In this document: positions 24,012 to 58,380 of the stretch, piece by piece | How the letters are laid out: each line of letters starts with the position of its first letter | How positions within the stretch are numbered: position 1 is the stretch's first letter | From: a virus | Length of the DNA: 64,000 nucleotides | Strand: one strand, 5' to 3' | IMG/VR virus record: IMGVR_UViG_3300044691_000566 | Coordinates: 32,001-96,000 of that record | Made by a program: the position numbers and the translations under genes | The notes under the pieces: model-generated | Database searches by the model: none | The model's input: the letters and a program-made list of their open reading frames with translations, nothing else | Told to the model about the DNA's origin: nothing

Positions 24012-24125
24012 CTGATAGAGTCAGGACTGCGTGGCTCGGCATGGCATGGTAAGGCTAGGCGGGGCCTGGCAAGGCGCGGCAGGGCAGGGGAACGGCCCCA
24101 ATTCCTACGGGAGTTGGGGCCTTCA
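24012..24125 (-). repeat. hairpin-(NNGCC)12-CTGACTCTATCAG element, copy 1 (inverted)
   Basis: Pentamer array flanked by a hairpin and the box; same layout as the three + strand copies. Confidence 0.85.
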
Positions 24126-24127
24126 TC

Positions 24128-24157
24128 TTGCCACTCCAAGGATTCCTGGGGTAGGGT
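24128..24157 (+). promoter_or_regulatory. early promoter (variant)
   Basis: TTGCCA-CTCCAAGGATTCCTGGGG-TAGGGT. Confidence 0.75.
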
Positions 24158-24195
24158 GAGGTTCCGCCAGAGATACCGAACTCCCAGGAGGCCCC

Positions 24196-24477
24196 GTGGT
24201 TTTCCATACGCTCGCGTTCGCGTTGCAGGTGGCGGCTCTCGCCCTCATGCTCACCGCGCTGGCGCTGCGCATCTCCAAGATCATGCACACCGATTGCACG
24301 ATCCTGTCGGTGGCCTTCGGCTTCGTCCTGCTGAGCTGCTCGGCCATCGTCACCCGTCAGATCACGGCCGCCGGGCTGCTCTTCACCCTCTTCGTGGGCA
24401 ACACGATGATCTTCCACGGTGTCCGCCACGACCTGCGTCCGGCGCGGGCCTACCACAGGATGCGGGGGCGCTCCTGA
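24196..24477 (+). CDS. membrane protein
   Basis: Three hydrophobic segments. Confidence 0.7.
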   Translation: MVFHTLAFALQVAALALMLTALALRISKIMHTDCTILSVAFGFVLLSCSAIVTRQITAAGLLFTLFVGNTMIFHGVRHDLRPARAYHRMRGRS

Positions 24478-24776
24478 TGGCGGAACTCCTGTACTGGGGC
24501 GGCTGGGGACTGTGGATCTGCTCCTTCGGATTCTTCATCCTCCGCAAGGTCGACGGTCGGCGGCACGATCTGCTGATGGCGATCTCCTGGCTGCTGATCT
24601 GTGCCGGTGAGGCCATCCGCCACCGCCAGGGATCGGCCTCCATCGACGCCGCGTTCGCGGGGTTCTACCTCTGGCACTGGTGGACCAACGGCGGGGACGA
24701 CGACACCAAGAGGCGCCTGCGCAAGCTGGCCAAGAAGTTCCAGGGGCGCCGCCGTACGGCCCCCGCGACCGCCTAG
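24477..24776 (+). CDS. membrane protein
   Basis: Hydrophobic segments, then WW..GGDDD.KRR. Confidence 0.7.
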   Translation: MAELLYWGGWGLWICSFGFFILRKVDGRRHDLLMAISWLLICAGEAIRHRQGSASIDAAFAGFYLWHWWTNGGDDDTKRRLRKLAKKFQGRRRTAPATA

Positions 24777-24786
24777 GAGGCGACGG

Positions 24787-25866
24787 ATGGACGAGCAGAT
24801 CGAGAATCCGCATGTGGTGCTGTACGTGGACCAGGAGGGCGACGAGCAGATCACCCCGGTCATGTCGGAGGCTGCGGCCAAACAGCGCGCCTGGTCCATG
24901 CAGGCAACCGGCATCAACGTGCTGAGCGTGGTGTCGGAGGCGTACGGCAAGGAGTACACCGGCTCGTTCTTCGTGCGCTACACGGACGGCTTCCAGCAGC
25001 AGCAGGAGACCGGGATCTTCCCCTCCCGCGAACGCGCCGTCCGGGAATGCGACGAGATCACGGAGGACACCAACAACAGCAACATCGAGATCCTCCCGGC
25101 CAAGATGCACTCCTCGCGCACCACCGAGGAGCAGGTGCAGAAGACGCCGGAAATTCCCTCCGAACCGACGCAGTGGGAGGCCGAATCGACATGGTGGGAG
25201 GTGGTGTACCGCAATCCCAACCTTCCCGACCCGGCGTTCACGGCGCAGTCCACGCTGCCCATGACGGCCGATGAGGCGTCGGCGGCGATGCATCGCCTGA
25301 TCCAGCGGGGCATGACGGAGTGCTCCCTCCGGCGGGTGCCGCGTGACGAGCTGAGCCAGGTCCTCTATCTCGTCCGTTCCGACGACTGGCGGGACAAGAG
25401 CACCGACGTGGAGCGGTACACCGCGCCGGAGCCCCCGCACCTGGCCAAGGATCGTGCCGCCGAGATGAAAGAGCAGGACTACCGGGTCATAGCCATCCTC
25501 ACCGTCAAGGCCGTCGATCAGCGCAGGACCGCCTCCCGGGACGTGGAGGCCGAGACCAACGAGATTCTCGACGTCCAGACGTGGCCGGAATACAAGGACT
25601 TCCAGGAGCCCACCGAGGAGCAGTACGCGGAGGTGGAGCAGGCCCCGCACCAGGATGAGGCCAATGCCGCTCTGCGGGATGCGGCCTCGCGGGCCAAGGG
25701 CCTGATCTCCCGGGACCCGGGGCATCGGGATCTGCGGGACCGGGACCGCGCCCTGAAGCTGGCCCTGAAGTTGGCCAAGATCGGACGACCCAGCAAGATC
25801 TCGGCTGCCACCCTTGTCGCCCACGCCGAGACGATCTTGAAGTTCCTGTACCCCGAGGAGAAGTAG
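24787..25866 (+). CDS. hypothetical protein
   Basis: AGGAGG RBS. Confidence 0.8.
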   Translation: MDEQIENPHVVLYVDQEGDEQITPVMSEAAAKQRAWSMQATGINVLSVVSEAYGKEYTGSFFVRYTDGFQQQQETGIFPSRERAVRECDEITEDTNNSNIEILPAKMHSSRTTEEQVQKTPEIPSEPTQWEAESTWWEVVYRNPNLPDPAFTAQSTLPMTADEASAAMHRLIQRGMTECSLRRVPRDELSQVLYLVRSDDWRDKSTDVERYTAPEPPHLAKDRAAEMKEQDYRVIAILTVKAVDQRRTASRDVEAETNEILDVQTWPEYKDFQEPTEEQYAEVEQAPHQDEANAALRDAASRAKGLISRDPGHRDLRDRDRALKLALKLAKIGRPSKISAATLVAHAETILKFLYPEEK

Positions 25867-25876
25867 AGAGATCCCC

Positions 25877-26563
25877 ATGGACGACAAGACCCTGGAACTG
25901 CCGGTCGTGCCCGATCCCGACACGGTGGCGACGCAGGAGATCCGGGTCGTCCCCGAGCATCTGGTCGGCGACCCGATACTCACCATGGATGCTCCCCGCC
26001 TGCGCTTCTTCTCGCTGTTCGACTACTACTACGGAGACCGGCCGGTCTTCGTGCCGCCACCTCCCAGACAGGTGCATCACAGAGTGCCGAAGACTCATGA
26101 CCGGGTGTTGATAGGACTGGCCGCCACGCTGGCGGCCCTGACCGTGCTGACGTACGTGGAGGTCGCGTCGGGCTGGCATTCGGGAGCGTCCCGGATGCAG
26201 CCCCCGGTGGTCGCCAGCAGCCCGCTGGCCGTCCCGAGTGTGCTGCCGGGCACCAGCGTCCCCGTGCCTTCCCCCGAGCCCGCCAGGACCGCTCAGGTGC
26301 TGGCGGACGTCCAGACGTCGCCCTCCCGCATTCCGGCCGCCGTACGCCCCCGCCGGACCGTGGTGGTGCCCGTGACGCCTTCTGTGCCGCCGCCGGTCAC
26401 CGTGAGCCCCATGCCGTCACCGAGTCCGTCGCCCAGCCCCACCGCGCCGTCTCTCTCTCCGTCGCCCCCGCTGATCGTTGTACCGGTCGGGTCGCCGTCG
26501 GCCCCGGTGGATCCGGGCAGTAGTACATCGTCGACCCCCACCATCACGAGGAGCAGTCCATGA
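25877..26563 (+). CDS. membrane-anchored Pro/Ser-rich protein
   Basis: One TM segment, PS repeats. Confidence 0.65.
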   Translation: MDDKTLELPVVPDPDTVATQEIRVVPEHLVGDPILTMDAPRLRFFSLFDYYYGDRPVFVPPPPRQVHHRVPKTHDRVLIGLAATLAALTVLTYVEVASGWHSGASRMQPPVVASSPLAVPSVLPGTSVPVPSPEPARTAQVLADVQTSPSRIPAAVRPRRTVVVPVTPSVPPPVTVSPMPSPSPSPSPTAPSLSPSPPLIVVPVGSPSAPVDPGSSTSSTPTITRSSP

Positions 26564-26862
26564 CGCAGATGACACCCGAGCAGCGCGAAGAGCGCCTCAT
26601 CCAGACCCTGATGACCACCTGGGCCCGTGACCGGCAGCATGCCGAGGGCATCCTGGCCGGGTACGTGGCCAACGAACTGGCCAAGGCATCCAAGGAGTTC
26701 GATGACCTGGAAAACCCCTACCGCCGCAACAGCTCCCGCCTGAAGTGGAGCACGGGGGTGGTGATGGTGACCTCGATGCTGTTCCGGCGGGAGATGCGGC
26801 TGTGGGCCAAGATGTCCCGGGCGGACGCCGGGCACCCGGAGCGCACGGCCCCGCGTACCTGA
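26560..26862 (+). CDS. hypothetical protein
   Basis: ATGA overlap. Confidence 0.65.
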   Translation: MTQMTPEQREERLIQTLMTTWARDRQHAEGILAGYVANELAKASKEFDDLENPYRRNSSRLKWSTGVVMVTSMLFRREMRLWAKMSRADAGHPERTAPRT

Positions 26863-26886
26863 CAAGTCCCGGGGTATACGGGGGAC

Positions 26887-27072
26887 ATGAATCCGTTGTA
26901 TTTGGTGCTGTACGTGGTCGCGGCGCTGCTGTTCTTCGCCGCTGGTGCCCTCGGGTGGGGATGGGGTGCCCCCGGGGCTGCTCCCCGGTACGCGGGCTGG
27001 AGCAACCTGGTGGCGTTCGGACTTCTGTTCTGGGTGCTGGTGCCGCTCATCGCGCTGGCCCGCACCATGTAG
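26887..27072 (+). CDS. small 2-TM membrane protein
   Basis: Two hydrophobic helices. Confidence 0.7.
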   Translation: MNPLYLVLYVVAALLFFAAGALGWGWGAPGAAPRYAGWSNLVAFGLLFWVLVPLIALARTM

Positions 27073-27101
27073 GGTCTTCCTGTCACGCGCTCCACGCCTG
27101 A

Positions 27102-27183
27102 GGCCCCTCCCCACCATTCCGGGGGAGGGGCTTCGGAATTTTAAAATCCCTCCTTGACACTCCAAGGATTGTTGGAGAGGATG
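27102..27183 (+). promoter_or_regulatory. hairpin + TTTTAAAATC + promoter with inverted spacer
   Basis: TTGACA(27154)-CTCCAAGGATTGTTGGAG, the reverse complement of the usual spacer. Confidence 0.75.
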
Positions 27184-27215
27184 GGGTCAACGCCAGAGAC
27201 CCCGAGGAGGCCCAC

Positions 27216-27974
27216 ATGGGCACACCCGAGATTCCGTCCCTGAAGGACGGCGAGTACCTCCACTTCGAGTACGTGCAGGGCCAGCGCGACGACGAGGACG
27301 GCCCGGTCACCTACTTCTCCAACATGGTCGACCTCGCCAACACCCGCGAGAAGGCCATCCGGGACGTCACCGAGCTGATCGCCAACGAGGACGTGTGGGC
27401 GATCCACGTGCGCCGGGTCGAGCAGCCCGAGCAGGGCGTCCACCTGTACGACGAGTCGCAGCCCCTGGCCGTGGCCCAGAGCGAGGCCCACCAGTACCGG
27501 ACGGCCTACGAGGAGCTGGCCCAGGGGTTCATGAAGCTGGAGGACGCCAAGACCTCCATGCAGGCCGAGTACGAGCGGCAGGCCGACCACTGGCAGATCG
27601 GTCTCAGGGCGCAGGCCGCCGTGATCGAGATGCTCAAGGCCAAGTTGGTGCTGATTCAGGGCCGTGCCCAGCGTGCTCAGCGGGACGCCTATCTGATGGA
27701 GCCCCAGGACGTCTTCCAGGACGCCAAGGTCGACGTGCAGGCGGAGCTGGAGAGCGCCAAGCGCAAGGCCAAGGCGCACCAGGAGGACCGCAAGACACAG
27801 GAACTGGCCGAGCGTACGGGCCTGGTGCGCCTGACCGAGGACGGCACGGGCCTGTCCGAGGACCGGTGCGTCTGCGGTCACCCCCGCCACGTGCACCGCA
27901 AGGGGGACTGCGAGATGTGCCCCAGTGGCAAGGAGCGTTCCTGGCGCCACGAGTTCAACCCGGAGGTGAATTGA
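27216..27974 (+). CDS. coiled-coil protein with C-terminal CxCGH...H module
   Basis: GAGGAGG RBS. Confidence 0.8.
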   Translation: MGTPEIPSLKDGEYLHFEYVQGQRDDEDGPVTYFSNMVDLANTREKAIRDVTELIANEDVWAIHVRRVEQPEQGVHLYDESQPLAVAQSEAHQYRTAYEELAQGFMKLEDAKTSMQAEYERQADHWQIGLRAQAAVIEMLKAKLVLIQGRAQRAQRDAYLMEPQDVFQDAKVDVQAELESAKRKAKAHQEDRKTQELAERTGLVRLTEDGTGLSEDRCVCGHPRHVHRKGDCEMCPSGKERSWRHEFNPEVN

Positions 27975-28222
27975 TGGAGGGCTCCCGTCCGGAGTACTTC
28001 ATCCTCGACGAGGTCGGGGGTACCGCCGAGGCGATCGACAACACTGCCGACACCGTGCAGGCGGAGGACTGCTGCACGGTGCCCGGCTGCGGGCACTGGG
28101 AGTCCCAGCACGAGCGCAACCACTGCCGGGTGTGCCACACCGAGGACACCGGGCTGGGGCGCCCCGAGGACCGCAAGTGCCAGCACTACTTCTTCCCGCC
28201 GCTGGGAAAGGACAAGGACTGA
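27974..28222 (+). CDS. small Cys/His protein
   Basis: CGH...QH..HCRVC. Confidence 0.65.
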   Translation: MEGSRPEYFILDEVGGTAEAIDNTADTVQAEDCCTVPGCGHWESQHERNHCRVCHTEDTGLGRPEDRKCQHYFFPPLGKDKD

Positions 28223-28890
28223 TGGCCGAGAAGAAGCGCCGCTGCGGGGCCAGCCTGCCGGACCGGGACGCCGAGGAGAACCAGCACTACTGCTACCACC
28301 CGGCCGGTCACGCGGGGTGGCACGAGGACGACGTGTGCATATGGAAGGACGGGGACACGGTGAGCGTCCACACCGTGGAGGAGCTGCCCGCCGTGTCCCA
28401 CCACACCCACGACTTCGTGGGCGACGAGGACACCTGCGTGAGCGTTGTGGCCTGCCCGCTCACCTGGGGGCAGTTCACGGCGCAGCAGCGCGAGTGGGAG
28501 GCCGAGCAGGCCGACACCTGCTCGTTCTGCGGCCACGCCGAGCACTGCCACACCTTCGAGGCGCGGGACGAGGGCGGCAGGGACTACCGCACCGAGTGCG
28601 GGGGCGCCAAGGAGTTCCACTCCTTCAACGAGGAGCCCAAGGCCGTCGTCCCGAGCCGTGAGCGCCTCCTGGAGTTCGTGCGGAGCATGCTGGGGCCCGA
28701 TGCCTCCCCCGAGCACGTAGAGCGCGTTGCGCACCGCGTACAGCTCGTCGTGGGGCCCCTCGCCACGGAGTCCGCCCCTGCGGCCCAGCCCGCTCTCCGT
28801 GGCCCGCGCGGTCCCGGCAGCGGCCCGGTGATCATGGACGAGGTTGCCCAGGTGCAGGACGCGTTGAAGGAGACCAGAACTGATGGCTGA
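28222..28890 (+). CDS. Cys/His-rich protein
   Basis: C.HPAGH.GWH and CSFCGH modules. Confidence 0.7.
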   Translation: MAEKKRRCGASLPDRDAEENQHYCYHPAGHAGWHEDDVCIWKDGDTVSVHTVEELPAVSHHTHDFVGDEDTCVSVVACPLTWGQFTAQQREWEAEQADTCSFCGHAEHCHTFEARDEGGRDYRTECGGAKEFHSFNEEPKAVVPSRERLLEFVRSMLGPDASPEHVERVAHRVQLVVGPLATESAPAAQPALRGPRGPGSGPVIMDEVAQVQDALKETRTDG

Positions 28891-29563
28891 GCTGAGCAGC
28901 CGGGGCTTCGAGCAGTACGGCGAGATCGAGACCACGTACGGGCACACGGTGCGCGTGTACGAGTCGTCGGCCGCCAGTGGCCCGCACCTGTGGCTGAAGA
29001 CCAAGCTCGTCGCCGAGCGGTCGACGCACGCCCTTCCGCCGGAGGAGGCCACGGCACACCTGGATCTGCTCCAGGCCATAACGGTGCGTGCCCTCCTGGA
29101 CGAGTTCATTGAGGGTGTGCCCGAGCGATGGGCGAATGGCACCTCTCTGCTCCTCAAGGCCGACAAGGCGTGGCGGGAGGCCAATCCGGAGTTGGTGCTG
29201 GAGCAGACCCGCAGGAACTGCCAGTGCTGCGCGTCCGGCAACCACGACTTCCGGTGCACCTGCGACGGTGAGGGGTGCTGCCACCCGGGTCACCACGCGC
29301 CCGCCCAGGACGTCCCGGATCAGCCGGAGCCCGAGGCCCCTGAGATCCAGGCCCTGAAGCCCCCGGTGGGCTCGTACGTGGCGACGGTGTTCCGAGTGGA
29401 CGGGTACGACCCGGACTGCGGGGAGACCCCGGAGACGGCCAGCATGGCCCGCCTGAGCGCCGTGGACGTGGATGGCGAGATCATGGGGTGGACGCAGAAC
29501 TGCATCGGTCTGTACAACACGACCGACAAGGTGATCGACCATCCCGGGGACGTGCTGGGGTGA
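28883..29563 (+). CDS. hypothetical protein
   Basis: RGF..Y......YG..VRVYESSAA.GPHLW motif. Confidence 0.75.
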   Translation: MAELSSRGFEQYGEIETTYGHTVRVYESSAASGPHLWLKTKLVAERSTHALPPEEATAHLDLLQAITVRALLDEFIEGVPERWANGTSLLLKADKAWREANPELVLEQTRRNCQCCASGNHDFRCTCDGEGCCHPGHHAPAQDVPDQPEPEAPEIQALKPPVGSYVATVFRVDGYDPDCGETPETASMARLSAVDVDGEIMGWTQNCIGLYNTTDKVIDHPGDVLG

Positions 29564-29607
29564 GCGGGGGTTGACCCTGACTCTGTCCTTCGGCTAGCGT
29601 GAGCAGC

Positions 29608-29681
29608 CGCGCGGTGGAGCAGCTCGGTAGCTCGTTGGGCTCATAACCCAGAGGTCGCAGGTTCAAATCCTGTCTGCGCTA
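29608..29681 (+). tRNA. initiator tRNA-fMet(CAT)
   Basis: C1-T72 mismatch, GGG/CCC anticodon stem, CTCATAA loop; own promoter TTGACC(29571)...TAGCGT and downstream terminator. Confidence 0.95.
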
Positions 29682-29831
29682 CAACACGGAAGGCCCGGGA
29701 CCTCGGTTCCGGGCCTTCTTCGTATGTGAGATGAGCAACAGACCGGGTTTGTAGGCCAGTTGAGTGGCGCTCCGGCAATGCTTGGAGTACTCTGGTGCTT
29801 CGCCAGAGATTCCGAGACCGTGGAGGTCCCC

Positions 29832-30182
29832 ATGAACAAGGCTCGCTTGATCGAAAAGGTGTCCGAGACCCTGGGCAGTCGTGCCCTGGCCGTGGAGGCC
29901 GTGGAACTCGTGCTCGACACGATGGTGCGGGAGATCGCCAGTGGCGGCCGGGTGGCCATCACCGGCTTCGGCACGCTGGACAGCGTGGCCGTCAGTGCCC
30001 GTCAGGCGCGCAACCCCGCGACGGGGGAGACGGTGCAGCTCGCCGCCACGCGTCGGGTGCGCTTCCGTGCGGGCCGCAACCTCGCCGACCTGGTGACCGG
30101 CGCCAAGAAGCTGCCGACGGACGTGAGCGCGATCAAGAAGGCGCCCAAGGGTTCGGTCGGCAAGGGCGCCAGCCAGGGCTGA
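29832..30182 (+). CDS. hup: HU family DNA-binding protein
   Basis: MNK..LI...GGRVAITGFGT...ARNPATGETV...FRAG; Streptomyces-like KKLP...KKAPKGS tail. Confidence 0.92.
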   Translation: MNKARLIEKVSETLGSRALAVEAVELVLDTMVREIASGGRVAITGFGTLDSVAVSARQARNPATGETVQLAATRRVRFRAGRNLADLVTGAKKLPTDVSAIKKAPKGSVGKGASQG

Positions 30183-30257
30183 TCCCCGTACGAGGCCCCC
30201 GTCGTCCCTGCGGATGGCGGGGGCCTAGTCTTGCCTCCGTCAACCCCGTCATCCCTC

Positions 30258-30299
30258 TTGACACTCCAACAATCCTTGGGGTAGTCTTGACATTGTCAA
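30258..30299 (+). promoter_or_regulatory. early promoter + box
   Basis: TTGACA-CTCCAACAATCCTTGGGG-TAGTCT-TGACATTGTCAA. Confidence 0.85.
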
Positions 30300-30312
30300 G
30301 GAGCGCACCACC

Positions 30313-30528
30313 GTGAACCACCCGCCCGCCCTGCGACTCCGCAGGGACCGGCAGCCCCGCCTGATCGGCAACGTCCTGGCCATCGCGATCTTCGCGACGA
30401 TAGCCGCGACCGTCCTCGCCAGGGGTGTCATGCCAGGGCCGACCGACCTACCGCAGGCGCCCGGGGTTGCCGTAGTCAACCCCGGGCCGTGCACCCCTGA
30501 CCCCGTCCTGCCTGATCCGTCCTGCTGA
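30313..30528 (+). CDS. small membrane protein
   Basis: One TM segment. Confidence 0.6.
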   Translation: MNHPPALRLRRDRQPRLIGNVLAIAIFATIAATVLARGVMPGPTDLPQAPGVAVVNPGPCTPDPVLPDPSC

Positions 30529-30537
30529 GGAGACCAC

Positions 30538-31487: not shown

Positions 31488-31489
31488 CC

Positions 31490-33300: not shown

Positions 33301-33503
33301 ACGGATGAGATGGACCATGCGTATCTGGGCGCGTGCCGGGTGCGGTCGGCATCATGCGCCGTGGTGGAGGACTGTTCCTCCGCCGTCCTGCGGGAGGAGG
33401 TGATTTTCATGTCCTGCGCCAACCCTGACTGTCGTCGTGGCGGCTGTACCACCGGCCCCAAGCCATCGGAGGGCTCCGGCCCCAAGCGCTAACCTATGGC
33501 GCG

Positions 33504-33565
33504 AGCCCCCCTTCCTCGGGAGGGGGGCTTTCCCCTTGACTCCCCAACAATCCTTGTAGTAGTCT
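33504..33565 (+). promoter_or_regulatory. hairpin + early promoter
   Basis: TTGACT(33536)-CCCCAACAATCCTTGTAG-TAGTCT. Confidence 0.8.
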
Positions 33566-35913: not shown

Positions 35914-36175
35914 CATGTTCAATCGGGAGCAGATCGGCAAGTTCCGGCTGTATCCGCCGGACAGGCCCGGCGGCGGCTGGCAGATCTCGTACGACGAGGT
36001 GTGGCTGCCGGTGAGCCTGGCCGACCGGGACTCCTGCCTGGTCATTGCGGGCATGGTTCTCGCCGGGGTGGACGACGGGGTGCTGGAGGCGATGCAGGAC
36101 CGCGTCAACCGTGCGCAGTCGTCGCGGAACGTCACCCACGATGTGATCGAAGACCTCATGCGGAAGATGCCCTGA
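35906..36175 (+). CDS. hypothetical protein
   Basis: GGAG RBS. Confidence 0.6.
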   Translation: MDDMFNREQIGKFRLYPPDRPGGGWQISYDEVWLPVSLADRDSCLVIAGMVLAGVDDGVLEAMQDRVNRAQSSRNVTHDVIEDLMRKMP

Positions 36176-36184
36176 CATAGTCAG
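36172..36184. promoter_or_regulatory. perfect CTGAC-N3-GTCAG box upstream of the Thg1-like gene
   Basis: CTGACATAGTCAG. Confidence 0.65.
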
Positions 36185-36237: not shown

Positions 36238-37194
36238 GTGAAAGACGAGTTCGGCACCCGCATGAAGCTGTACGAGAAGGTCACCCGGATGGTGCTGCCG
36301 CCGCGCACCTTCACGATTATCCGGGTGGACGGCAGGACCTTCCACACGTACCTGAAGAAGGCCGACAAGCCCTTCGACCAGAAGGTGGTCTTCGGCATGG
36401 ACTACGCGGCGAGGCGGCTGTGCGAGGAGATATCCGGCGCGGTCTTCGCCTACGCCCAGTCCGACGAGATCAGCATCCTGCTGACCGACCTGGGCCCCAG
36501 GACCGAGCCGTGGTTCGGCGGCTCGGTGCAGAAGATGGCCTCGGTGGCCGCTTCGATCGCTACGGCCGCCTTCAACGAGGTCTACCTGCCCAGTCCCGAG
36601 GAGGACCAGGAGCGCAGGCCGGGCAGCGCCACCTTCGACGCCCGGGTGTACACGATCCCCTCCCGCATCGAGGTGGCCAACTACTTTCTGTGGCGGCAGA
36701 AGGACGCGATCCGCAACGCGGTGAGCATGGCGGCGCACGCGAACTTCGAAAACTACGAACTGGGCGGTCTGAACCTGGCCCGGCAACAGGAGCTGCTGTT
36801 CCGGAAGCGGGGGATCAACTTCAAGACCGCGTACACCGACCGGGACCGGCGCGGGGGAGTGGTGGTCTACGAGAGTTACATGCTCCACCGCGCCAGCACC
36901 CAGCACCTCCTCCCGGACCGCGCCGTCCGGGAGGGACCCAAGCTGTCCCCCGTGGAGCGCCACCAGTGGACCGCCAGGGCCGCCCCGGACTTCACCCTGG
37001 ACAACGGGGGCTTCCTGGCCCTCCAGATCCCGCAGGAGCCCTCCGACGCCCTCCAGCCGATGGTCCCCGAGTGCATCCACGAGGCGTGGGAGGAGGGGCA
37101 CGGGGGTACCCCCTATCAGTGCACCGACTGCGACCACGTCTTCACTCCGGCAGAGATCGACGCACGCAAGTGGAACACCAGGGACGGGGTCTGA
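36238..37194 (+). CDS. tRNA(His) guanylyltransferase / Thg1-like protein
   Basis: RVDGRTFH, KPFD, YAQSDEIS, QKMAS, FDARV, YF.WRQ.D..RN. Confidence 0.92.
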   Translation: MKDEFGTRMKLYEKVTRMVLPPRTFTIIRVDGRTFHTYLKKADKPFDQKVVFGMDYAARRLCEEISGAVFAYAQSDEISILLTDLGPRTEPWFGGSVQKMASVAASIATAAFNEVYLPSPEEDQERRPGSATFDARVYTIPSRIEVANYFLWRQKDAIRNAVSMAAHANFENYELGGLNLARQQELLFRKRGINFKTAYTDRDRRGGVVVYESYMLHRASTQHLLPDRAVREGPKLSPVERHQWTARAAPDFTLDNGGFLALQIPQEPSDALQPMVPECIHEAWEEGHGGTPYQCTDCDHVFTPAEIDARKWNTRDGV

Positions 37195-37196
37195 CG

Positions 37197-39278: not shown

Positions 39279-39293
39279 CGCTCCTGGCAGACG

Positions 39294-39399
39294 CACGAAG
39301 GCCCCCACCCGATATGGGTGGGGGCCTTCGTGTTGTTCCCCTGCCGTGCCCTGCCATGCCCAGCCTTGCCGCGCCGTGCCGAGGACTTGACTGTATCAG
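39294..39399 (+). repeat. hairpin-(NNGCC)8-TTGACTGTATCAG element, copy 2
   Basis: Direct inspection. Confidence 0.85.
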
Positions 39400-40521: not shown

Positions 40522-40553
40522 ACGCACGACGTCCTGCGCCGAGCGCACACGAC

Positions 40554-40650
40554 GAAGCCCCCTCCGGTGATCCGGAGGGGGCTTCTCCCTGCCATGCCCT
40601 GCGCTGCCATGCCGCGCCTCGCCATGCCGTGCAAGACCTGACTTTATCAG
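40554..40650 (+). repeat. hairpin-(NNGCC)9-CTGACTTTATCAG element, copy 3
   Basis: Direct inspection. Confidence 0.85.
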
Positions 40651-40679
40651 TCCCATGGTTCTCCGATCGCCGCCGAATG

Positions 40680-40713
40680 CTGTCCTCCGGCACCCTCGGC
40701 CCCGGAAGAGGTG
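40680..40713 (+). promoter_or_regulatory. candidate late promoter
   Basis: CTGTC-N20-GAAGAGGTG. Confidence 0.7.
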
Positions 40714-40723
40714 GAGGACACAC

Positions 40724-42994
40724 GTGGACGAGGACGACGAGGGCTTCGAGCTGTGGCCGCAGGGCTGGCAGCCCGACACCCCTGTCCGCGAAACCATGCG
40801 GGAGCACCAGAAGGTGCACCGCAGTCCTTCACCGAGTGACCTCAAAGTCCGGCGGCGCAACCGCCGGACGACTGCTGGAGGAGACGTGCAGACACGCGCC
40901 CAACTCGTCCGCGCTCTGGGCAAGGCCGCGAGCCTGGCCGAGCAGGCGCGAATCGCCGACGAGATTGCCAAGATCGACAACGGCCTGCGCACCCAGGCCG
41001 CCCAGGACCGGGACCTGGATCTCGCCGACACCGTGGTCCGCGACACCCTCACCCCCGTGCGGGTCCACGAGCACCACACCGCCGCCACCGACTGGATGGG
41101 TGACGAGACCGCCCCCGACCCCCAGTGGCAGGCCAAGGTCGTCGCCGAGGCCGCCCTCTGGTACGGCCGCGTCCCCGACATGGTCAAGGAGGACCCGGAG
41201 GAGTACGCCATCCAGGCGCAGGGCATGGCCCGCCGCGTCGCCGGACCCTACGGCCTCCAGGCCGAGGCCGCCAAGACCGCGTTCTTGAGCTACGCCGCGT
41301 TCCTCCACCAGGGCGCCTCCGGCCTGGACCAGATCCAGCAGACCGTCGACCCCAGCAACGCACCGAAGACCACCCCGCTGCCGCCCGAGGTCTTCGACAA
41401 TTTTGCCCCCGAGGTCGACCCGATCAACGCGGGCGTCTCCGGCACCGAGACCTCCGAGCGCAACCCTCTCCTCCAGGAGATCGTCAACGGCGGCTCCGGC
41501 ATGGACGGCGGCGCCCCCGAAAAGCCCGGCGGCCACTCCGAGGGCAACGAGCTGTCCTGGAACCCCCCGTCCGGCATGCAGGCCGACACCGCCCCCGGCT
41601 GGTCCGACGGCGACCCCGGCGCCCCCGAGCAGGGCGGCAACCGCCCCGACTACACCAAGGCCGCCTCGCTCCGCTTCGTCCCCGGCATGGCCATCCAGCA
41701 CACGATGACCATGGACCAGTACCTCGCCGAACAGGCCAGCACCGCCCGCACTGCGAGCAAGGCCGCCAGCCTGGGAAAATGCGTCGGCTGCGGGACTGAC
41801 CTGTCGGTCGGGAACGCGGCCGACCGCGAGGGCAAGGTCTGCAAGGGTTGCGCCAAGACCGCCTCCAGGCGGCAGGCGGCCTCCGGGCTGCCGCAGATCC
41901 AGCAGACCGTGGACGCCGACAACCAGCCCTCCACCACCCCGCTGCCCCCGGAGGTCGCCTTCCCGCTGGACGACACCATGCAGCAGGAGTGGACCACCAA
42001 CGGCACCGGCAACGCGGCGCCCGGCGCCCCGCAGACCGCGCCCAAGGCCGCCAGGCGCAAGCAGGCCGACATGTGGGGCAACTCCGACGCCCCGCACGCC
42101 GTGGTCCAGCCCGACGTGGCCAACAACCCCACCACCACCCCGCCGACGGCCGCAGGCGCCGGGGGAGCGGCAGCGGGGAAGGCCGACGCCAACAGCGGGC
42201 AGGCCCCCACCTTTGCCGACAACTCCTCCTCCATCCCGGCCCCGGCCCAGCAGTACGCCGAGGGCTTCAGCGGCGTCGACCAGACCGCCAAAGCCCCCGC
42301 CGCCGACGTCCCCGCCTCCATGGCCGGACCCGGCAACGGCGTCACCCACGCGGGCACCAAGGTCTCCTCCCTGATCACCACCGCCGCCGAACGCGCCAAC
42401 ACCGACTTCAAGAAGGGCTACGGCTACGCCTCCCGGTGGACCCCGGGCACCCGCCTGGTCTCCACCGGCTCCAGCGAATTCGAAGCCGGACTGTACGCGG
42501 GCATCTCTGATAACCCCGGTTATCAGAAGGCGTTCGTGGAAGCCCACCGCGACGCGTCCACCGCCTTCCCCAAGATCGCCGCCCGCGTCGACCAGCACAA
42601 GCGCGTCACCGCCCGCGTCGTGGCCAACAACGAGGTCCCCTCCAACGGCCTCTATCTGCTGGCGTCCACCTCCATGGACCTCAACACCACCGCGCCCAAC
42701 ACCACCCCGGCCGCCGACGGCTCCACCCCCATCAACGGCCCCGGCCAGCCCGGCCCGCTCGCGGGGGAGCAGAACGCCGCAGCCCCCGGCGGACCGGCCC
42801 CCTACAACGGCGCCGAGCCCTACGGCACGCCGGTCGTCCCCGGCGCAGGACAGGCCCCTCAGGCGCCCAACCCGGCCGACGCCCTGGTCGGCGGTGGGGG
42901 AATGTCCACCGAGCAGCAGGTGATGGCGTCCCAGACCCTGGCCTTCCGCAAGCGCGTGCAGGCAACCCTGCTGGCCGAACGCCAGGGGAAGTGA
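40724..42994 (+). CDS. putative virion head/internal protein (alternative start 40886)
   Basis: First gene of the late cluster; internal duplication; many [KRH]-x-A motifs. Confidence 0.7.
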   Translation: MDEDDEGFELWPQGWQPDTPVRETMREHQKVHRSPSPSDLKVRRRNRRTTAGGDVQTRAQLVRALGKAASLAEQARIADEIAKIDNGLRTQAAQDRDLDLADTVVRDTLTPVRVHEHHTAATDWMGDETAPDPQWQAKVVAEAALWYGRVPDMVKEDPEEYAIQAQGMARRVAGPYGLQAEAAKTAFLSYAAFLHQGASGLDQIQQTVDPSNAPKTTPLPPEVFDNFAPEVDPINAGVSGTETSERNPLLQEIVNGGSGMDGGAPEKPGGHSEGNELSWNPPSGMQADTAPGWSDGDPGAPEQGGNRPDYTKAASLRFVPGMAIQHTMTMDQYLAEQASTARTASKAASLGKCVGCGTDLSVGNAADREGKVCKGCAKTASRRQAASGLPQIQQTVDADNQPSTTPLPPEVAFPLDDTMQQEWTTNGTGNAAPGAPQTAPKAARRKQADMWGNSDAPHAVVQPDVANNPTTTPPTAAGAGGAAAGKADANSGQAPTFADNSSSIPAPAQQYAEGFSGVDQTAKAPAADVPASMAGPGNGVTHAGTKVSSLITTAAERANTDFKKGYGYASRWTPGTRLVSTGSSEFEAGLYAGISDNPGYQKAFVEAHRDASTAFPKIAARVDQHKRVTARVVANNEVPSNGLYLLASTSMDLNTTAPNTTPAADGSTPINGPGQPGPLAGEQNAAAPGGPAPYNGAEPYGTPVVPGAGQAPQAPNPADALVGGGGMSTEQQVMASQTLAFRKRVQATLLAERQGK

Positions 42995-52400: not shown

Positions 52401-52702
52401 CCGGGACGCAGCTCGCCAGCGTCGGCGTGGACGCCCGGGTGACCACGACCGGTCCGTTCCCCGAGGCCATCAGCACCGCGCTGGTGCCCGGCATGTACTG
52501 GGCGGCCTTCCTCTTCAACGCGGCCACCCCGCCGCGCCTGTATGTCGGCAGTGACCTCAACCCGCTGCTGATCAATTTCAACCTCGCCGGGGCCACGCTG
52601 GCCTTCGCCACCAACGGCACCGGCTTGACGGCCCTCCCCGCCTCCTTCTCCCCGTCCAGCAACGTCAGCTCCCAGTTCTGCCTTTTCTCCGCGCTCGCCT
52701 GA
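49418..52702 (+). CDS. virion spike/fibre with two pectate-lyase-like beta-helix modules
   Basis: ANGVAGL..DGKVP.AQLP anchor; two [A/G]DGTTDD..AIQAA motifs; G/S/T/N-rich. Confidence 0.8.
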   Translation: MPKHLTVNDESAFITAGQIGVANGVAGLGSDGKVPTAQLPTSVTGSVISVDGLIGNVDLTSRYALLSTSSRVDWISPLNYEAVADGTTDDHVAIQAALNAAPAGGVVFLGSRKYGLGAKITVPPYVTLLGGFADRDGAGDPEAALIPLPGFSSPMVVELVDQVTGAYGTVSRDAVLANFTIDGRLLTTESVNGVQASGLVHGVQMQNVSVHKVRGHAVSLVSNSSGNPYSWHLSNVQVSGSGSVTTWDGFHFIGTDHVFVDCRTEGVRGNGFYLQGCPNSSLTGCRAEWSALNGFYITGSYGSVQGSGSILLSGCSTDRSSQYGVLIDSTGTGHVILSGLMARRDGRNGFPGTGGGGYAAVRVSSATTPVLVTGLSCFPGVGDDGLGVNSPERGISVANSTYCMVTGSYLHADLTPYHDGGGNGQFYRGPNVATATGITSAPVRSTTEPAALSGPLTLTQGGFLGVRGASGNTLLNGQVTGDTNNRVNISAGGTVTWGSGGAAPDTTLARSGVNRLALSGDVSLFGVATTPLGWLNVKGPAYGALGDGTTDDTVAIQAAIDAAAAAGGGTVYFPYGVYRTSNALVLKTGVTLRGVHSTAWANRFTTALCSLKATASFAGECLISMLGSDITGSGHNEGNCRIFDLELDGSAMSTGSVSGIHAQGEVLDVMLQRVMVRNMTHNGIHTNVGTGTKAPHDWSFDSVVAYQNAQFGFSMSMTDGYVRNCVATTNGSDGWFLGPFGSLTMDSCQALWNTNHGLTIGGGSQVGNLTVNSFLTDRNGHDGIHLGPSSGSGSPPFVLTGITLNRDGRNSKAGGAGYAGLRIDGCANPVIINGLNVNTGVDDDATGVNSPQYGIRLTATNAYVQVNGGYVHGDTLGWNDDGTSTIVRRFNVDEATGLRTAPVFAYGNSVSTYGSSLDVPGHAMGLPSPREHGAIAWSVNPRSVRSDKLTTSGTLYLAALYVPRPATAVKLFWGINTAGVTPTAGQNFVGLYSAAGTQLASVGVDARVTTTGPFPEAISTALVPGMYWAAFLFNAATPPRLYVGSDLNPLLINFNLAGATLAFATNGTGLTALPASFSPSSNVSSQFCLFSALA

Positions 52703-52717
52703 CCGTTCGAGCATCTG

Positions 52718-52751
52718 CTGTCACCCCTTCCGCCAGCGCGCGGAAGGGGTG
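52718..52751 (+). promoter_or_regulatory. candidate late promoter
   Basis: CTGTC-N20-GAAGGGGTG. Confidence 0.75.
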
Positions 52752-52768
52752 AAAGCACAGGAGGACGC

Positions 52769-55700
52769 ATGGGGCTGGGACGCCGCGAGGCCGCACACGA
52801 CACCGCGCTGTCGCGCAAGCAGGCCGGGGACTATCCCACCGACTACTCGGTGGGCCAGAAGGTCATGACGGTCGACGGCATCCCGGGCCGTGTGGAGGAG
52901 GTCATCTTCTCCCCGGCCATGGGGGAGGAGTACGACGTCGTCCTGGACGATGGGGCCGGGCGCGGGACGTATGCGCCCTCCCAGCTCTCCCCGTACGCCA
53001 CCAGCACCCACCAGGCCACCGGGACGCACCTGGCCTCGGACGACTACGAAGAACTTACGGACGTCTTGCGCGACAGGCCCGACATCGCCGTGCCGGTGCG
53101 GTTGGGGTCCCTCCAGGTGCAGGCGTCCACGGAGCCCCTGCCGGGATACGGCACGCCGGGGCCGCGTCCCGAGCCGGAGCAGCCGGATGACGACGAGCAC
53201 TACGACCCGCCGTGCGCCTACCCGCACGAGGGGCCGTGCCCGGTGTGGCCCGAACCCCACGACCACCACACGTCGTCCGTGCACCTCGCGATGCCCCCCA
53301 AGTCGGGGAAGCCCCCCGTGGGCGAGTACTCGTACAAGGTGCATCCCTCCAGCGGCCTGTTGACCGGCTACATCAACGGCGAAGAAGCCGGGTACATCAA
53401 CCACACCCCGTACCGGAACGAGGACGAGTACGGCCACTACGAGGACTACGGCGACGGGGACGACAACCACGAGCACCACCCGTTCAGTGCCGGTCACAAG
53501 GCGGGCGCCGTCAAGGTCCACATGCTGCACACCAACCCCGCGCACCGGGGATCCGGTGTCGCCTCGGCGATGATGGACTCGCTCTACCACCACTACCCGA
53601 ACGCCTGGATCAACCACGGCTACCGGACGGACAATGGGTCGACGTGGTGGAACAAGTACGACGAACCGGACCCCGGTCGCAACGTCCACAACGTGAGCCC
53701 CGACGACCACTCGCACCGGCTGAAGAAGCACTGGACGAGCCACTTCGATGTCGACGACGTGGTCAGCGACATGGACTCCCTCTCCCGCACCAACGAGGAG
53801 CAGGGTCACGAGGGCAACGCGCACCGGCAGTGGGATCAGACCGAGCACGGCGGGACCGGCGCCAGTCCTTCCTGTGAAGACTGTGACTCCGACAGGGACC
53901 ACTACTGCCACGACTGCGAAAAGTACTACCCGCACCGGTACGAGGGCGACACACACGGCGATGATTGCCCGAAGCGGTGCGAGGAGTGCGACTCCGACGG
54001 CGAGCACGAGTGCCCCACGTGCAAAGAGTGGGTCCATCACGACGACCTGGAGCAGCACGAGCAGGACCACCAGGACGAGCATGCGGCCGACGACGAGCAC
54101 GACCCCGTCCAGGTCGGCCTGCACAACTCCGTCACGGTCCCCCTCACCCGCAAAGAGCACGACTTCGTGCACAATCCGGCCATCCCGGCGGACAAGCGGG
54201 CCCACCACCTGCTGAACCGGATCGGGCGGGGCGCCATGCCCAGCCACGACTGGGACGTCGACCCCAAGACCTCGCACGAGATCGAGCACGACTCCCACGA
54301 GCAGACCCCCTACTCTCGGGGCCTGCACACGACGGTGACCCTGCATGCCCACCCGCTGAACGAGCACGAGGCCCAGGACGGTTTCGGCAACGACAGCTAC
54401 ACCCGTGAAGGCGAGCGGTCGCACTTCGACGCCGTCCCCACCAAGTTTCGGCTGAAGGGCATGTCCTGGGGTGACGGCCCCCGGGAGGCGGAACATCACC
54501 ACGAGTTCCCCGGCCACGGCCAGCGGGTGGCCACCGCGCCCAGCACGTACAACAGCCAGCCCGGGAACTACCCCCGCAGCCTCAAGCCCCTCCTGCGCCA
54601 GCCGGGCCACGAGCGCCCGGCCCCCGAGGTCCACCCCGAGCAGGGCAAACTCTTCGCCCGGAAGACGGCCGCGACCCGTGCCGACTTCCAGTTCGAGCAC
54701 GAGGACACCGACATCCGTGGCATCAAGCACGGCTACAAGAACCACCTGCGGGCCATCCACCCGGAGACGGGGGAGCACGCCGGGACGCTGACATACTTCG
54801 CGCCCACGCGTAAGGGTGCCCCGGTGATCGTGGACGATCTGACGACGTCGCACCCGGGCGCGGGCTCCGCGCTGATGGACGAGGTGGAATCCCGGCACCC
54901 GGGCAGCCGGATTCAGCACGGCGTGGACAAGCCCATGAGCAAGGGCAAGCCGCACTACGACCACTCGGACTATGGCAAGGCCACCGACTGGTCCGCCCAC
55001 TACCCGAACCTGCCGGAGCAGGTCCACCGGGGCCTGAACGTGCGCCTGGAGGGTTCCGACGCCCGAGCGGTGACGCGCGGGGAGGGGTCGGCCGCCGACC
55101 ATGCCCAGATCCTGCACAGCGCCTTGCGCGATGGCGGACCTCTCGGCATGCACTGGTCGTCGGACGAGGAGACCAGCCGGAACTTCGCACACCGCAACAT
55201 TCGGGACCCCCGTAAGGACGTGCCGGTAATCCTGCACGCCGACCGGCCCGCCCAGAAAGACCTCGAAACCCGGCCGAACGTGCTCAAGAACAACGGGGTG
55301 TGGATGCACGACTACGAGCACGGCGACGCCGAGGTGCCGGTGCGCCGGGGCCGGTCGGTGAACCTCCGGGGGATCTCCTGGAAGCCGGACGCCCCGCACT
55401 CGGAGGCCGACGCCAGCGGCTGGGTGCACCACACCTTCGGCGAGGGCAGTCAGCACACTGCCGCTCTGTACGCGGCCGTCGGGGGCGAACCGGTCTACCG
55501 GGGCTTGAACCTCGGGCTGGCGAGCGACGAGGACGTGGAGCATCTGCACCGGGACCCGGTGGGGTACCTGAACCAGAAGGGCTTCCGGCCCCACGAGGCG
55601 GGCATCCACTGGTCCACTGACCCGTACACCGCGCACAACTTCGCCCTGGCCCACGATGAGGACGACGACGACGCCACTCCGCACACCCACGGGGTGATCC

Positions 55701-57871
55701 TGCACGGCCGGGCCGAGCCTCAGCACGTTGTGCAGCACGGTACCCCGGAGTGGGACGACTACGCCGATCAGTACGAGATCCACGGGGAGAACAGTCCCGA
55801 GCAGGAGCGCACCGTACGCACGGGTGCCCCCGTGCAGATCACCCACGCCACGGCGGTCTCCAAGCCGGTATGGGGCGACGAGGGCCGTGAGACCGAGGTG
55901 CCCTGGGGGAGCCAGGTCACCGCCAACCAGCAGGACGGCTTCCTCGCCGACACCGCCGACGAGGCCCCCGAGGAGGAGATCGTCTCCCAGGGCGCCTTCG
56001 ACCCGTACGCCATCCTCACCACCGCTGCCGCCGATCCGGAATTCCGCTTCCACGTCACGGCCGCCTGGGCCGACGTCCGCCGCAAGGCGAAGCGGATCCG
56101 CTCCGAGGGCGGCGTACGCATCACCCTGGCCACCGACGGCGTGGTCTTCGGCGAGGTCAAGGGCGACCACCACGTCTACGAGACCGGCGTACAGCGCTTC
56201 CCCGGCACCAAGCACTCCGTGGCCACCTACACCTGCGGCTGCAAGTGGGGCGCCTACCACTGGGGCGCCCCTGACGACTTCAGCCACTTCGCCGGACGTA
56301 TGTGCTCCCACGCCCTCGCCCTCCAGTACGAGGCCCAGTCCCGGGGCATGTTCGGCCGGGACGTGGAGGTCGACTCCACCAAGCCCGAGTGGGTCCCGAA
56401 GAAGGTCGTCCTCCGCTACGACATCGACGACGGCACCAACCGGATGGTGCGCTCCAGCACGAAGACGGCAGCAGCAGAGCCCAATCCGCACGGTCTGTAC
56501 CTGCGTTTCGGCAGGTGGCCCCACGACGAGCGCTCCACCAACAACATCACGGGTGCGAAGGAAGACGGGGTCAGCGTCTACGACCTCGATCATCACGGCC
56601 GCCCCATGGACCCGGACCCGGACGACAGTCGGACCAACATCGACGACGGGGACCGCAACTGGCCCAAGGAGGAGATGCACGGCCGGGTGGGCAAGGCCGA
56701 GCGCGACCGCAAGTGGGGCAATGACCATCCTGACCGTCAGGCCCACATCGTGAGGGGCGACATCGCAGGCTTCGGTCACGACAATGAGCCGCTGCTCAAC
56801 AACGTCGAGCGGATCGGCGACTGGATCGATCACCGGCATCTGTTCTTCAGCGGCAAGCCGCATCCCCTCGCCCGCAGTGAGGACCACGACGACTATGAGC
56901 CGCCGGAGGAGGAGCCCCAGCACCGTACGGCTGCCCTGGAGGTCACCCCGCTGGTGGCCCTCGCGCAGTGGTCCCGTGCGCAGGGCGACGACCCGGAGGA
57001 GTTCGCGTTCCTCCTGGGCATGCACGGCCTGACGGCCGCGATCAGCTCCCCCTGGGGCGAGCCGCAGGCCCCGGCCGCCAACTACACCCCGGGACCGACC
57101 AAGCCCCGCAACCCCGCCGAAAACCCCGGATCCACCGGCTGGGCCACCCAGTCCGACCCCGACAACTGGGATTCGATCAACCCCAACGACCTGGGGGACC
57201 GCGTCGCGGCCCTGGACGAGTTCCTGTTCGAGGGTGCCATCCCGCAGGAGATCGCCCAGTCCGACGACCCGATGGCCTCCTCCCCGGGCACTGAGGACAC
57301 CCCCCTGGAGAACGGCGTGACGGCGTACTGGCGGCACATGGAGGACGTGGCGATGACCACGGAGGCCATCTCGATGCTGGGGGAGCAGGACGGCCCCCTC
57401 TGGCCGTCCGGGCCCAAGGGCGGCCGGGGCGGTCCGATGCCGCCGGGACACGCGCAGATGCCGGAGCACGAGGAGCTGACCCCCGGAGCCGAGGCGGATC
57501 TGCATGTGCAGCCGGAGGGGGCGCTTCCGTACACCGACGGCGACGGCCCGGACCTGACCGACGACGAGTCCCTCACCCCGTCCCGGACCGCCTCCCTGGG
57601 CAGCAGCATCCTGGAACAGTTCCAGGCCACCGCCTCCCACTTGGCCCCCGGCGGCTCCACCAGACCCTCCGGACGCGGGGGTGTCGCGGCGGAGATCGCC
57701 GCCCAGGCCCGGGAAACCCTCAGCAAGATCGCGCTGAAGGACTACAGCCCCGCAGAGCAGGCTGCGATCATCAATGAGGGTGTCAACGTCAGGGCCTCCA
57801 ACCTGGACCGCCTGGACGTGACCGGCACGCACTACGAGTCTCAAGAAGACGAGGACGGGATATGGCCGTAA
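52769..57871 (+). CDS. 1700-aa polyvalent protein: SH3-like, 2 GNAT, Zn cluster, 2-3 ADP-ribosyltransferase-like domains, SWIM
   Basis: [11 protein letters not shown] and HPGAGSALM (GNAT); VHRG..HWSSD..AEV and VYRG..HWSTD..EQE (R-S-E ART); CGC...CSH (SWIM). Confidence 0.75.
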
Positions 57872-58269
57872 CCACCGCCAAGGACGAGCCGGAGGACGGC
57901 GTCCCGCAGGGGATGCTCACGCCGCCCGAGGAGGGCACCGTCCCCTACGGCGGCAAGGGCCTCACCCTGAATGCAACCGGGGACGTCCACCCCTACCAGC
58001 TCATCGAAGAGATCTACCAGCGCCTGGGCGAGCGCGGCGACTACGAAGTGGTCGTCACCGAGTCCCACGACGGCAAACAGCGCTCCGTGCACGTCCTGGG
58101 CGATGCCGACCGGGCCGTCGTGCAGGGCGTCATCGACTCCCACGACCCCGACCCCGACTACGGCCTCAGCGCCGAGGAGCGCCGCATCCAGGACCTGAAG
58201 CACCAGTTGAAGAGCGGCGCCGACCTGTCCCCCCAGGACTTGAACACCCTGATGCGCGCCATGCTCTGA
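57862..58269 (+). CDS. hypothetical late protein
   Basis: Overlap coupling. Confidence 0.7.
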
Positions 58270-58273
58270 CGAC

Positions 58274-58380
58274 GAAGGGGGCGGCCGGAGCCGCCCCCTT
58301 CTCCCTGCCATGCCCAGCCATGCCGCGCCATGCCTCACCTTGCCGTGCCAGGCCATGCCCCGAGGACTTGACTATATCAG
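58274..58380 (+). repeat. hairpin-(NNGCC)11-TTGACTATATCAG element, copy 4
   Basis: Direct inspection. Confidence 0.85.

Follow-up and report, generated by a model that had tools for sequence, protein, structure and literature searches.

A complete virus genome, deposited as IMG/VR record IMGVR_UViG_3300044691_000566 (159,746 bp, 67% GC, direct terminal repeats), carries a composite repeat that we analyzed in a stretch of 64,000 nucleotides, bases 32001–96000 of the record, hereafter called the window. Coordinates refer to the window unless marked as genome coordinates. An initial annotation, made from the letters of the window, had described this repeat as a four-copy element, and all four copies were found where it had placed them (24012–24125, 39294–39399, 40554–40650 and 58274–58380). 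On the strand on which they had been read, here termed the annotated strand, each copy consists of a GC-rich hairpin, 8–11 in-phase NNGCC pentamers and the box YTGACTNTATCAG in this fixed order, and copy 1 is inverted as a whole. The phase of the array and the box are kept and the hairpin stems and NN positions vary, also as described. The exact 13-base box occurs four times in the window, and matches with at most one mismatch number nine against 0.16 expected from shuffles. Genome-wide, in-phase NNGCC arrays of at least six units were found 19 times and never in five shuffled genomes, and all 19 lie between a hairpin and a box. The count of four holds for the window, but the genome as a whole contains 20 units. 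Twelve of them, arranged as two tandem clusters (genome 101.6–102.2 kb and 106.7–107.9 kb) and one adjacent site, flank a gene termed vipr around genome 101.6–111.1 kb; the remaining eight are scattered, among them the four of the window, which lie 17–52 kb from vipr. An Rfam scan of the window returned five tRNAs only, and the units match no family.

Read on the opposite strand, each of the four window units is a self-contained segment of about 90–100 nt, in which a promoter-like box is followed by 8–11 GGY-NN pentamers (Y, pyrimidine) and a hairpin 3′ tail; the predicted RNAs, from box to hairpin, measure 87–104 nt. In this reading direction the window contains the following features:

23724–24008, plus strand: Tad2-like gene (PF11195) adjoining copy 1, with a near-target at 23892–23923 (motif LMAFKPYLMLC)
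24012–24024, plus strand: copy 1, predicted promoter CTGATAGAGTCAG, extended −10 TGA-TAGAGT at 24013–24021, beginning 3 nt past the stop codon of the Tad2-like gene
24033–24087, plus strand: copy 1, guide array of 11 GGY-NN units, NN: TC AT AT AA TA GG CT AA GC AG AG
24094–24121, plus strand: copy 1, 3′ tail hairpin, 12-bp stem with G·U pairs and C(UACG)G loop
about 24028–24128, plus strand: copy 1, predicted RNA
39387–39399, minus strand: copy 2, predicted promoter CTGATACAGTCAA (minus-strand letters), −10 TACAGT at 39390–39395
39341–39380, minus strand: copy 2, guide array of 8 units, NN: AC GC AA TG AT AG AC AG
39294–39332, minus strand: copy 2, tail hairpin, 17-bp stem and 5-nt loop
about 39288–39383, minus strand: copy 2, predicted RNA
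40638–40650, minus strand: copy 3, predicted promoter CTGATAAAGTCAG (minus-strand letters), −10 TAAAGT at 40641–40646
40629–40638, minus strand: copy 3, two degenerate promoter-proximal units
40589–40628, minus strand: copy 3, guide array of 8 units, one of them off-consensus (CGCAG), NN: AT GA GC AT AG AG AT AG
40554–40585, minus strand: copy 3, tail hairpin, 14-bp stem
about 40548–40634, minus strand: copy 3, predicted RNA
58368–58380, minus strand: copy 4, predicted promoter CTGATATAGTCAA (minus-strand letters), −10 TATAGT at 58371–58376
58305–58359, minus strand: copy 4, guide array of 11 units, NN: AT CT AC AA GA AT GC AT TG AT AG
58274–58301, minus strand: copy 4, tail hairpin, 12-bp stem and C(UCCG)G loop
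about 58265–58364, minus strand: copy 4, predicted RNA

Reading strand, hairpin and promoter of the units

When the hairpins were folded on both strands, the strand opposite to the annotated one gave the more stable structure in 18 of 19 units. The hairpins contain 40 G·U pairs on the opposite strand versus eight on the annotated strand, where the positions of the former are A–C mismatches. Fifteen of the 20 opposite-strand loops are UNCG tetraloops (UACG, UUCG or UCCG), mostly closed by a C–G pair, a class of loops that is unusually stable. Compensatory changes affect 9 of 15 stem pairs, and a conserved junction, GGCAG-GGAGAAG, leads from the last repeat into the hairpin. Fold stability, G·U pairs, loop type and stem covariation thus argue that the functional molecule is an RNA made from the other strand. 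The repeat itself agrees well with this direction of reading, as positions 1–2 are GG in 190 of the 200 units of the genome and position 3 is C in 168, T in 30 and a purine in two, i.e. a pyrimidine in 198. The GCC originally taken as the constant part of the pentamer is present in most units; almost every exception reads ACC, corresponding to GGT on the opposite strand, so that the constant is GGY.

The reversed box reads C-TGA-TAGAGT-CAR and thereby comprises TGn and a TAnnnT hexamer. Extended −10 elements are common in actinobacteria. TGA followed by [T/C]AnnGT is found in all 20 units, 9–12 nt ahead of the first canonical repeat, and the one base of the box that had been left variable in the initial annotation is hexamer position 3, the least constrained position. 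Three units possess a weakened hexamer (CAGAGT or CAGGGT), and each of these carries TTGACA or TTGACG exactly 17 bp upstream; in the remaining 17 TAnnnT units the −35 region matches at only 2–4 of 6 positions (Fisher p about 0.001). In the window copies TAGAGT, TACAGT, TAAAGT or TATAGT follows TGA, which conforms to a sigma-70-type extended −10 promoter with an optional −35 element. On sequence grounds, the box is the predicted extended −10 promoter of each unit.

The Vipr homologue and the guide RNA interpretation

VIPR is a CRISPR-like DNA silencer first described in 2026, the guides of which (vrRNAs) are about 100 nt long and consist of tandem GGY/NN pentamers, never fewer than four and as a rule 9–16, and a structured tail (bioRxiv 10.64898/2026.04.26.720920, 10.64898/2026.04.26.720927). 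One protomer of the effector Vipr occupies each repeat, burying GGY and presenting NN (bioRxiv 10.64898/2026.04.26.720927), and the NN pairs read double-stranded DNA at two bases of three and silence transcription (bioRxiv 10.64898/2026.04.26.720920, 10.64898/2026.04.26.720927). The genome studied here encodes a homologue of this effector: a 216-aa open reading frame (ORF) at genome 107925–108575 (L069:7925–8575) matches PDB entry 36pp_D, 'SUSP1 Vipr protein', with an E value of 6.1e-40 over nearly the full length of the protein (residues 28–212 versus 5–190 of SUSP1). Its RNA-contact residues H17, K33, R39, K82, R138, D177 and R179 are kept, and W178 is replaced by tyrosine. The ORF after vipr (187 aa, L069:8615–9178) is a candidate vap; it belongs to a PHROG of unknown function, and searches with it yielded no PDB match and a Pfam match below threshold only.

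The units that had appeared off-consensus in the initial annotation are GGT, as the pyrimidine-only pocket of Vipr predicts. All 16 NN dinucleotides are used, and the 20 guides are all different. The guides also show self-avoidance: the best self matches of the four window guides are 16/22, 13/16, 14/20 and 15/22, none of which exceeds the shuffled-guide null, and the 13/16 match of an 8-unit guide falls inside it (maximum 15). Across all 20 guides, the NN positions contain 41% GC (genome 67%) and the first N is A in 42% of the units, which suggests either that the targets are foreign DNA richer in AT or that NN is constrained not to pair with the GGC scaffold.

Taken together, the units are very probably independent VIPR guide RNA genes, each read from the complement of the annotated strand. 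Host RNA polymerase would start at the extended −10 promoter (the reversed box, TGA-TAnnGT) a few bases before the first repeat and produce a transcript of 8–11 GGY-NN pentamers and a GC-rich hairpin, which would both end the RNA and serve as its conserved 3′ tail. The phage's own, distantly encoded Vipr would then assemble with one protomer per pentamer, GGY being buried and NN presented, and the NN pairs would read a DNA target at two of three bases, whereupon transcription of the target would be silenced. The transcripts, their loading with Vipr and the silencing step we infer from the VIPR papers. The earlier idea of a protein polymerizing on 5-base repeats survives in so far as the Vipr filament contains one protomer per repeat (bioRxiv 10.64898/2026.04.26.720927), but the predicted substrate is the RNA transcript and not DNA starting at the box. 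It was the strand error that made a guide RNA gene look like a DNA site.

Guide 1, further target searches and relatives of the phage

The guide of copy 1 (guide 1) adjoins a gene for a Tad2-like protein of 94 aa (PF11195, E 4e-21), and its best match within the phage genome, 16/22 at 23892–23923, lies inside this very gene. The match follows the codon phase, the wobble position being the one that is skipped, and opposite the resident motif LMAFKPYLMLC guide 1 reads as L L A F (S/R) P Y (F/L) (I/M) (I/M) (D/E). At eight homologous Tad2-like loci the best match of guide 1 always falls on this same motif with 13–18 of 22 positions, the best allele (18/22, 82%, in frame) coming from a JGI metagenome. 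None of 5000 shuffled guides reaches 18, only 0.02% reach 16 on the phage's own Tad2-like gene, and the other 19 real guides reach 64% at most. Guide 1 appears to be aimed at a conserved motif of Tad2-like (anti-Thoeris) genes. The resident copy differs from the guide at 6 of 22 read positions and is just below the 80% level of the VIPR authors; the likely target is the version of the Tad2-like anti-Thoeris gene that competing phages carry. Such an arms race would place guide 1 in a class of targets that has not been reported for VIPR, as anti-defense genes are not among them (bioRxiv 10.64898/2026.04.26.720920, 10.64898/2026.04.26.720927, 10.64898/2026.10.15.759431). One may speculate further that the scattered guides are linked weapon-plus-immunity cassettes, with VIPR silencing the anti-defense gene of a rival and host Thoeris removing that rival in a co-infection, although we regard this as doubtful. 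If the Tad2-like target is true, it extends VIPR from satellites and prophages to the disarming of a rival phage's counter-defense, which can be tested.

For 5 of the 20 guides the best self match lies at most 2.5 kb from the guide, each with a chance of 0.03–0.06, where about one such guide is expected. For two other scattered guides, the highest-scoring self match anywhere in the genome falls in frame within an adjacent gene: the one at genome 111103–111142 (plus strand) matches the 187-aa candidate vap at 13/16, and the one at genome 149190–149234 (plus strand) a 720-aa DNA helicase (PHROG 2488) at 13/18.

Targets of the window guides were also sought by scans under the NNx rule, confined to exact full-length matches in a few collections. 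The two 11-unit guides gave 0 and 0 matches in viral contigs. Ten matches in genome contigs, seven of which represent one N-terminal peptide (MLTKD[I/M]AICIRA...) of a Planctomycetota gene, were dismissed as irrelevant because all of them lie in non-actinobacterial genomes, and a metagenome scan with the 11-unit guides returned two identical contigs of 44% GC, which are not credible. The 8-unit guides produced matches at chance level, including one GC-rich cluster out of codon phase.

Searches of a GenBank phage collection by megablast and tblastn found no relatives of the phage. In IMG/VR, a single Vipr sequence retrieved nothing, and an alignment query retrieved two relatives. Two related phage contigs possess vipr together with arrays that lack promoters. 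One of these contigs, a complete phage of 154 kb and 65.6% GC, is a sister phage with a Vipr 68% identical to the one described here. Its vipr stands at another genome position; tandem arrays without promoters and with a tail of another kind come after it, and the box is absent from the entire genome. Where copy 4 would lie, the next promoter directly succeeds the upstream stop codon in the sister phage; where copy 3 would lie, an ordinary terminator hairpin is found. The comparison revealed no duplicated flanks at either site. In the third relative, whose Vipr is 54% identical, the order is vipr, vrRNA, gene, vrRNA, again with arrays that lack a box; hence, GGY/NN arrays do occur without any link to the box, against the linkage proposed in the initial annotation. 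A metagenomic contig (L180:559–1000, Logan SRR23559413) shows the arrangement of copy 1, with a Tad2-like gene, a promoter TTGATAGAGTCAA, an array of 15 units and a hairpin. The guide encoded there bears no relation to guide 1, is partly duplicated internally and matches Tad2-like genes at 60% at most. Given these layouts, guide genes that are scattered and carry their own promoters characterize this phage lineage. The mapping of copies in relatives that had been proposed earlier thus uncovered empty sites, at copies 3 and 4, and to judge from these comparisons scattered guide units enter and leave genomes as complete cassettes. Between this phage and its sister, no cross-targeting above the null was detected in either direction.

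The VIPR locus as such occupies genome 106.7–111.2 kb here versus 56.3–58.2 kb in the sister phage (G001), with 76% DNA identity of vipr; since the genomes are otherwise syntenic, the locus has moved. G001 also carries a 12-unit GGY-NN array at 111498–111557 (minus strand), which has no box and lies antisense within a 688-aa ORF homologous to the ends of a 1231-aa gene of this phage (window 62169 onwards).

Sequences related to the box occur in further contexts. The reversed box stands ahead of protein genes with ribosome-binding sites at genome 144302 (minus strand) and 68172 (plus strand), and the box pattern has 68 single matches in IMG/VR. A one-base variant that is a perfect palindrome, TTGACTCTGTCAG, is present four more times on the plus strand of the window, directly after early-type promoters and without array or hairpin. 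Members of this promoter family lie at window 9272, 10493, 13327, 15551, 17004 and 18368 (plus strand) and at genome 27657 and 29099; they consist of TTGACG, an 18-bp spacer containing CTCCAACAATCCT, and TAGTCT, directly after which come the palindrome (GTC)TTGACTCTGTCAG(GAC) and the leader GACTCC-n-GGAGG-ATG, which is conserved. Since the palindrome is one base apart from the reversed vrRNA promoter, a single regulator may control both promoter classes; at the one early promoter inspected in the sister phage, a different palindrome is found. If the cassette reading were true, the 13-bp sequence that guide promoters share with the operator-like early palindrome would tie guide output to the early program. 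A reading of the box as a stoperator or operator only was discarded as unneeded for the array units, the conservation of which is explained by promoter logic, while an operator role of the early-promoter variant is possible. Another variant, CTGACATAGTCAG (plus-strand letters, 36172–36184), matches on the minus strand with one mismatch, lacks an array and lies 53 nt (66 nt from start to start) upstream of the plus-strand gene 36238–37194; a protein gene seems to be driven here by a promoter of the vrRNA class, as also at genome 144302 (minus strand). Within the vrRNA cluster, the unit at genome 106835–106950 (plus strand) has the promoter (TTGACA, 17 bp, CAGAGT) without GGY repeats, and the roughly 100 nt that come next contain a long imperfect hairpin and may be another small RNA of the locus. 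The box was also considered as a forward-strand promoter or as part of a leaderless mRNA and rejected, as nothing downstream is conserved, TATCAG does not fit the TAnnnT hexamer and the ATG at 40655 does not serve as a start. This ATG, four bases past the copy 3 box, opens the long ORF 40655–42994, but alignment with the sister phage puts the ribosome-binding site at 40711–40719, so that translation probably starts near 40725.

Alternative explanations and known systems

Several observations weigh against the interpretation of the units as VIPR guide RNA genes. Two of the window guides have 8 units, one below the published 9–16, and no pseudoknot is predicted in the tail, which is a plain hairpin, unlike that of the SUSP1 clade. 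The hairpin is followed by tails of the CGUCGUU type instead of five U in eight, no intrinsic terminator was called, and the unit hairpin is thus not a textbook terminator. A scan for two-hexamer promoters of the E. coli sigma-70 type called nothing at the units, the window copies being devoid of a −35 hexamer, and the promoter call therefore relies on the logic of the extended −10 element. For three of the four window guides no target was found in the collections scanned, and for guide 1 no perfect target was found, the best reaching 82%. Finally, transcription of the units, their 5′ ends and their loading with Vipr are deduced by analogy.

How do the alternatives fare against these points? 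A nucleoprotein site on DNA, where a DNA-binding protein would load at the box and then coat the 5-bp repeats for partition, replication, insulation or recombination, was the initial proposal. The box is indeed near-palindromic, its perfectly palindromic variant sits at the start sites of early promoters and some DNA-binding regulator may recognize it. However, G·U pairs and UNCG loops are strand-specific RNA signatures that make no sense for duplex DNA, relatives retain arrays without the box, and a GGY with a pyrimidine-only third position fits the RNA pocket of the Vipr encoded in the genome. We consider such a site extremely improbable, as the box is predicted to be a promoter and the strand had been read the wrong way round. 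Small RNAs independent of VIPR are just as improbable: sponges for another repeat-reading protein (TRAP, CsrB-like), two-tier G-quadruplexes or R-loop primers would account for triplets at a 5-nt period, for the G2N3 spacing and for a G-rich transcript on a C-rich template. These ideas were dropped upon finding the Vipr homologue, since the genome encodes a cognate protein that reads exactly a GGY-NN repeat. A quadruplex moreover needs no conserved pyrimidine after GG, hypervariable NN positions are expected of guides and not of a sponge, and one guide matches a gene family in frame.

The presence or absence of units at otherwise syntenic sites of the sister phages could also be produced by a mobile repeat similar to miniature inverted-repeat transposable elements (MITEs) or repetitive extragenic palindromic (REP) sequences, which transposes into intergenic terminators and is transcribed only incidentally. 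The metagenomic contig with the same promoter at the same place behind a Tad2-like gene, but with another guide, is compatible with such mobility. Nevertheless, neither terminal inverted repeats nor target-site duplications are seen in the two empty-site comparisons, and the copies are alike at functional positions only, which indicates selection on each copy and not recent copying. Transposition of a small mobile element, the other initial proposal, is for these reasons highly unlikely. The scattered units might instead be relics or decoys derived from vrRNAs that lack a targeting function and, for example, insulate genes as bidirectional terminators and antisense promoters. This would agree with the three of four guides without a detectable target, with the position of copies 2–4 antisense between plus-strand genes, the hairpin adjoining the upstream stop codon, and with the plain terminator hairpin of the sister phage at the copy 3 site. 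Yet GGY conformity and tail structure are equally good in scattered and vipr-adjoining units, guide 1 has a specific in-frame match and the target search covered exact full-length matches in few collections. We judge such relics to be very unlikely, and guide RNA genes as the best explanation of the units.

VIPR is known mostly from enterobacterial and Pseudomonas elements (bioRxiv 10.64898/2026.04.26.720920, 10.64898/2026.04.26.720927), and actinobacterial phages and Streptomyces are unmentioned in its descriptions (bioRxiv 10.64898/2026.04.26.720920, 10.64898/2026.04.26.720927, 10.64898/2026.10.15.759431). The system itself is published; new here is the scattered, self-promoted layout of the guides. 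The analysis places a well-equipped VIPR with 20 guides in a large soil actinophage and indicates that guide genes can be autonomous transcription units scattered over a genome, which surveys beside vipr only will miss. The combination of extended −10 promoter, GGY-NN repeats and UNCG hairpin provides a searchable signature for them.

Among RNA-based systems with a regular protein register, TRAP sites are GAG/UAG triplets at about 5-nt spacing, and CsrB-type RNAs act as sponges. Like these, the units have short conserved triplets that recur at even intervals in an RNA and are recognized by an oligomeric protein; unlike there, no homologue of TRAP or CsrA is implicated, and the variable positions are informative, as in guide 1, and not mere spacers. 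As in the crRNA–Cas7 complexes of Class 1 CRISPR systems, a relationship drawn in the VIPR papers, RAMP protomers would line a guide at a fixed step with a thumb that interrupts pairing periodically. However, each step covers 5 nt, of which three are buried and two read, two of every three target bases are interrogated, and the phage possesses no repeat–spacer array, adaptation genes or nuclease.

By protein sequence, the system is closest to the SUSP1 (type II) clade. With type II VIPR of Escherichia phage SUSP1 and a Pseudomonas fulva prophage (bioRxiv 10.64898/2026.04.26.720920, 10.64898/2026.04.26.720927) it has in common a Vipr of the RAMP type with its RNA-contact residues, guides of about 100 nt built from GGY/NN pentamers with hypervariable NN, a structured 3′ tail, the lack of self-targeting and, for guide 1, a target in codon phase, the wobble bases being skipped. 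It differs in that the carrier is a 160-kb actinophage of 67% GC, that the tail is a simple, mostly UNCG-capped hairpin where SUSP1 has a pseudoknot, that every vrRNA has its own conserved extended −10 promoter, that 8 of the 20 guide genes do not flank vipr but are dispersed at distances of up to 52 kb, and that some guides comprise only 7–8 units. Stand-alone guides that do not lie beside vipr are also known as the solo vrRNAs of F5 satellites and of VIPR-null phages of the SUSP1 family (bioRxiv 10.64898/2026.10.15.759431). Those published solos belong to elements without vipr, which borrow or antagonize the system of another element, and are located at an old VIPR locus or in satellites, whereas the phage described here owns vipr and carries its solos at unrelated intergenic sites among early, nucleotide-metabolism and virion genes.

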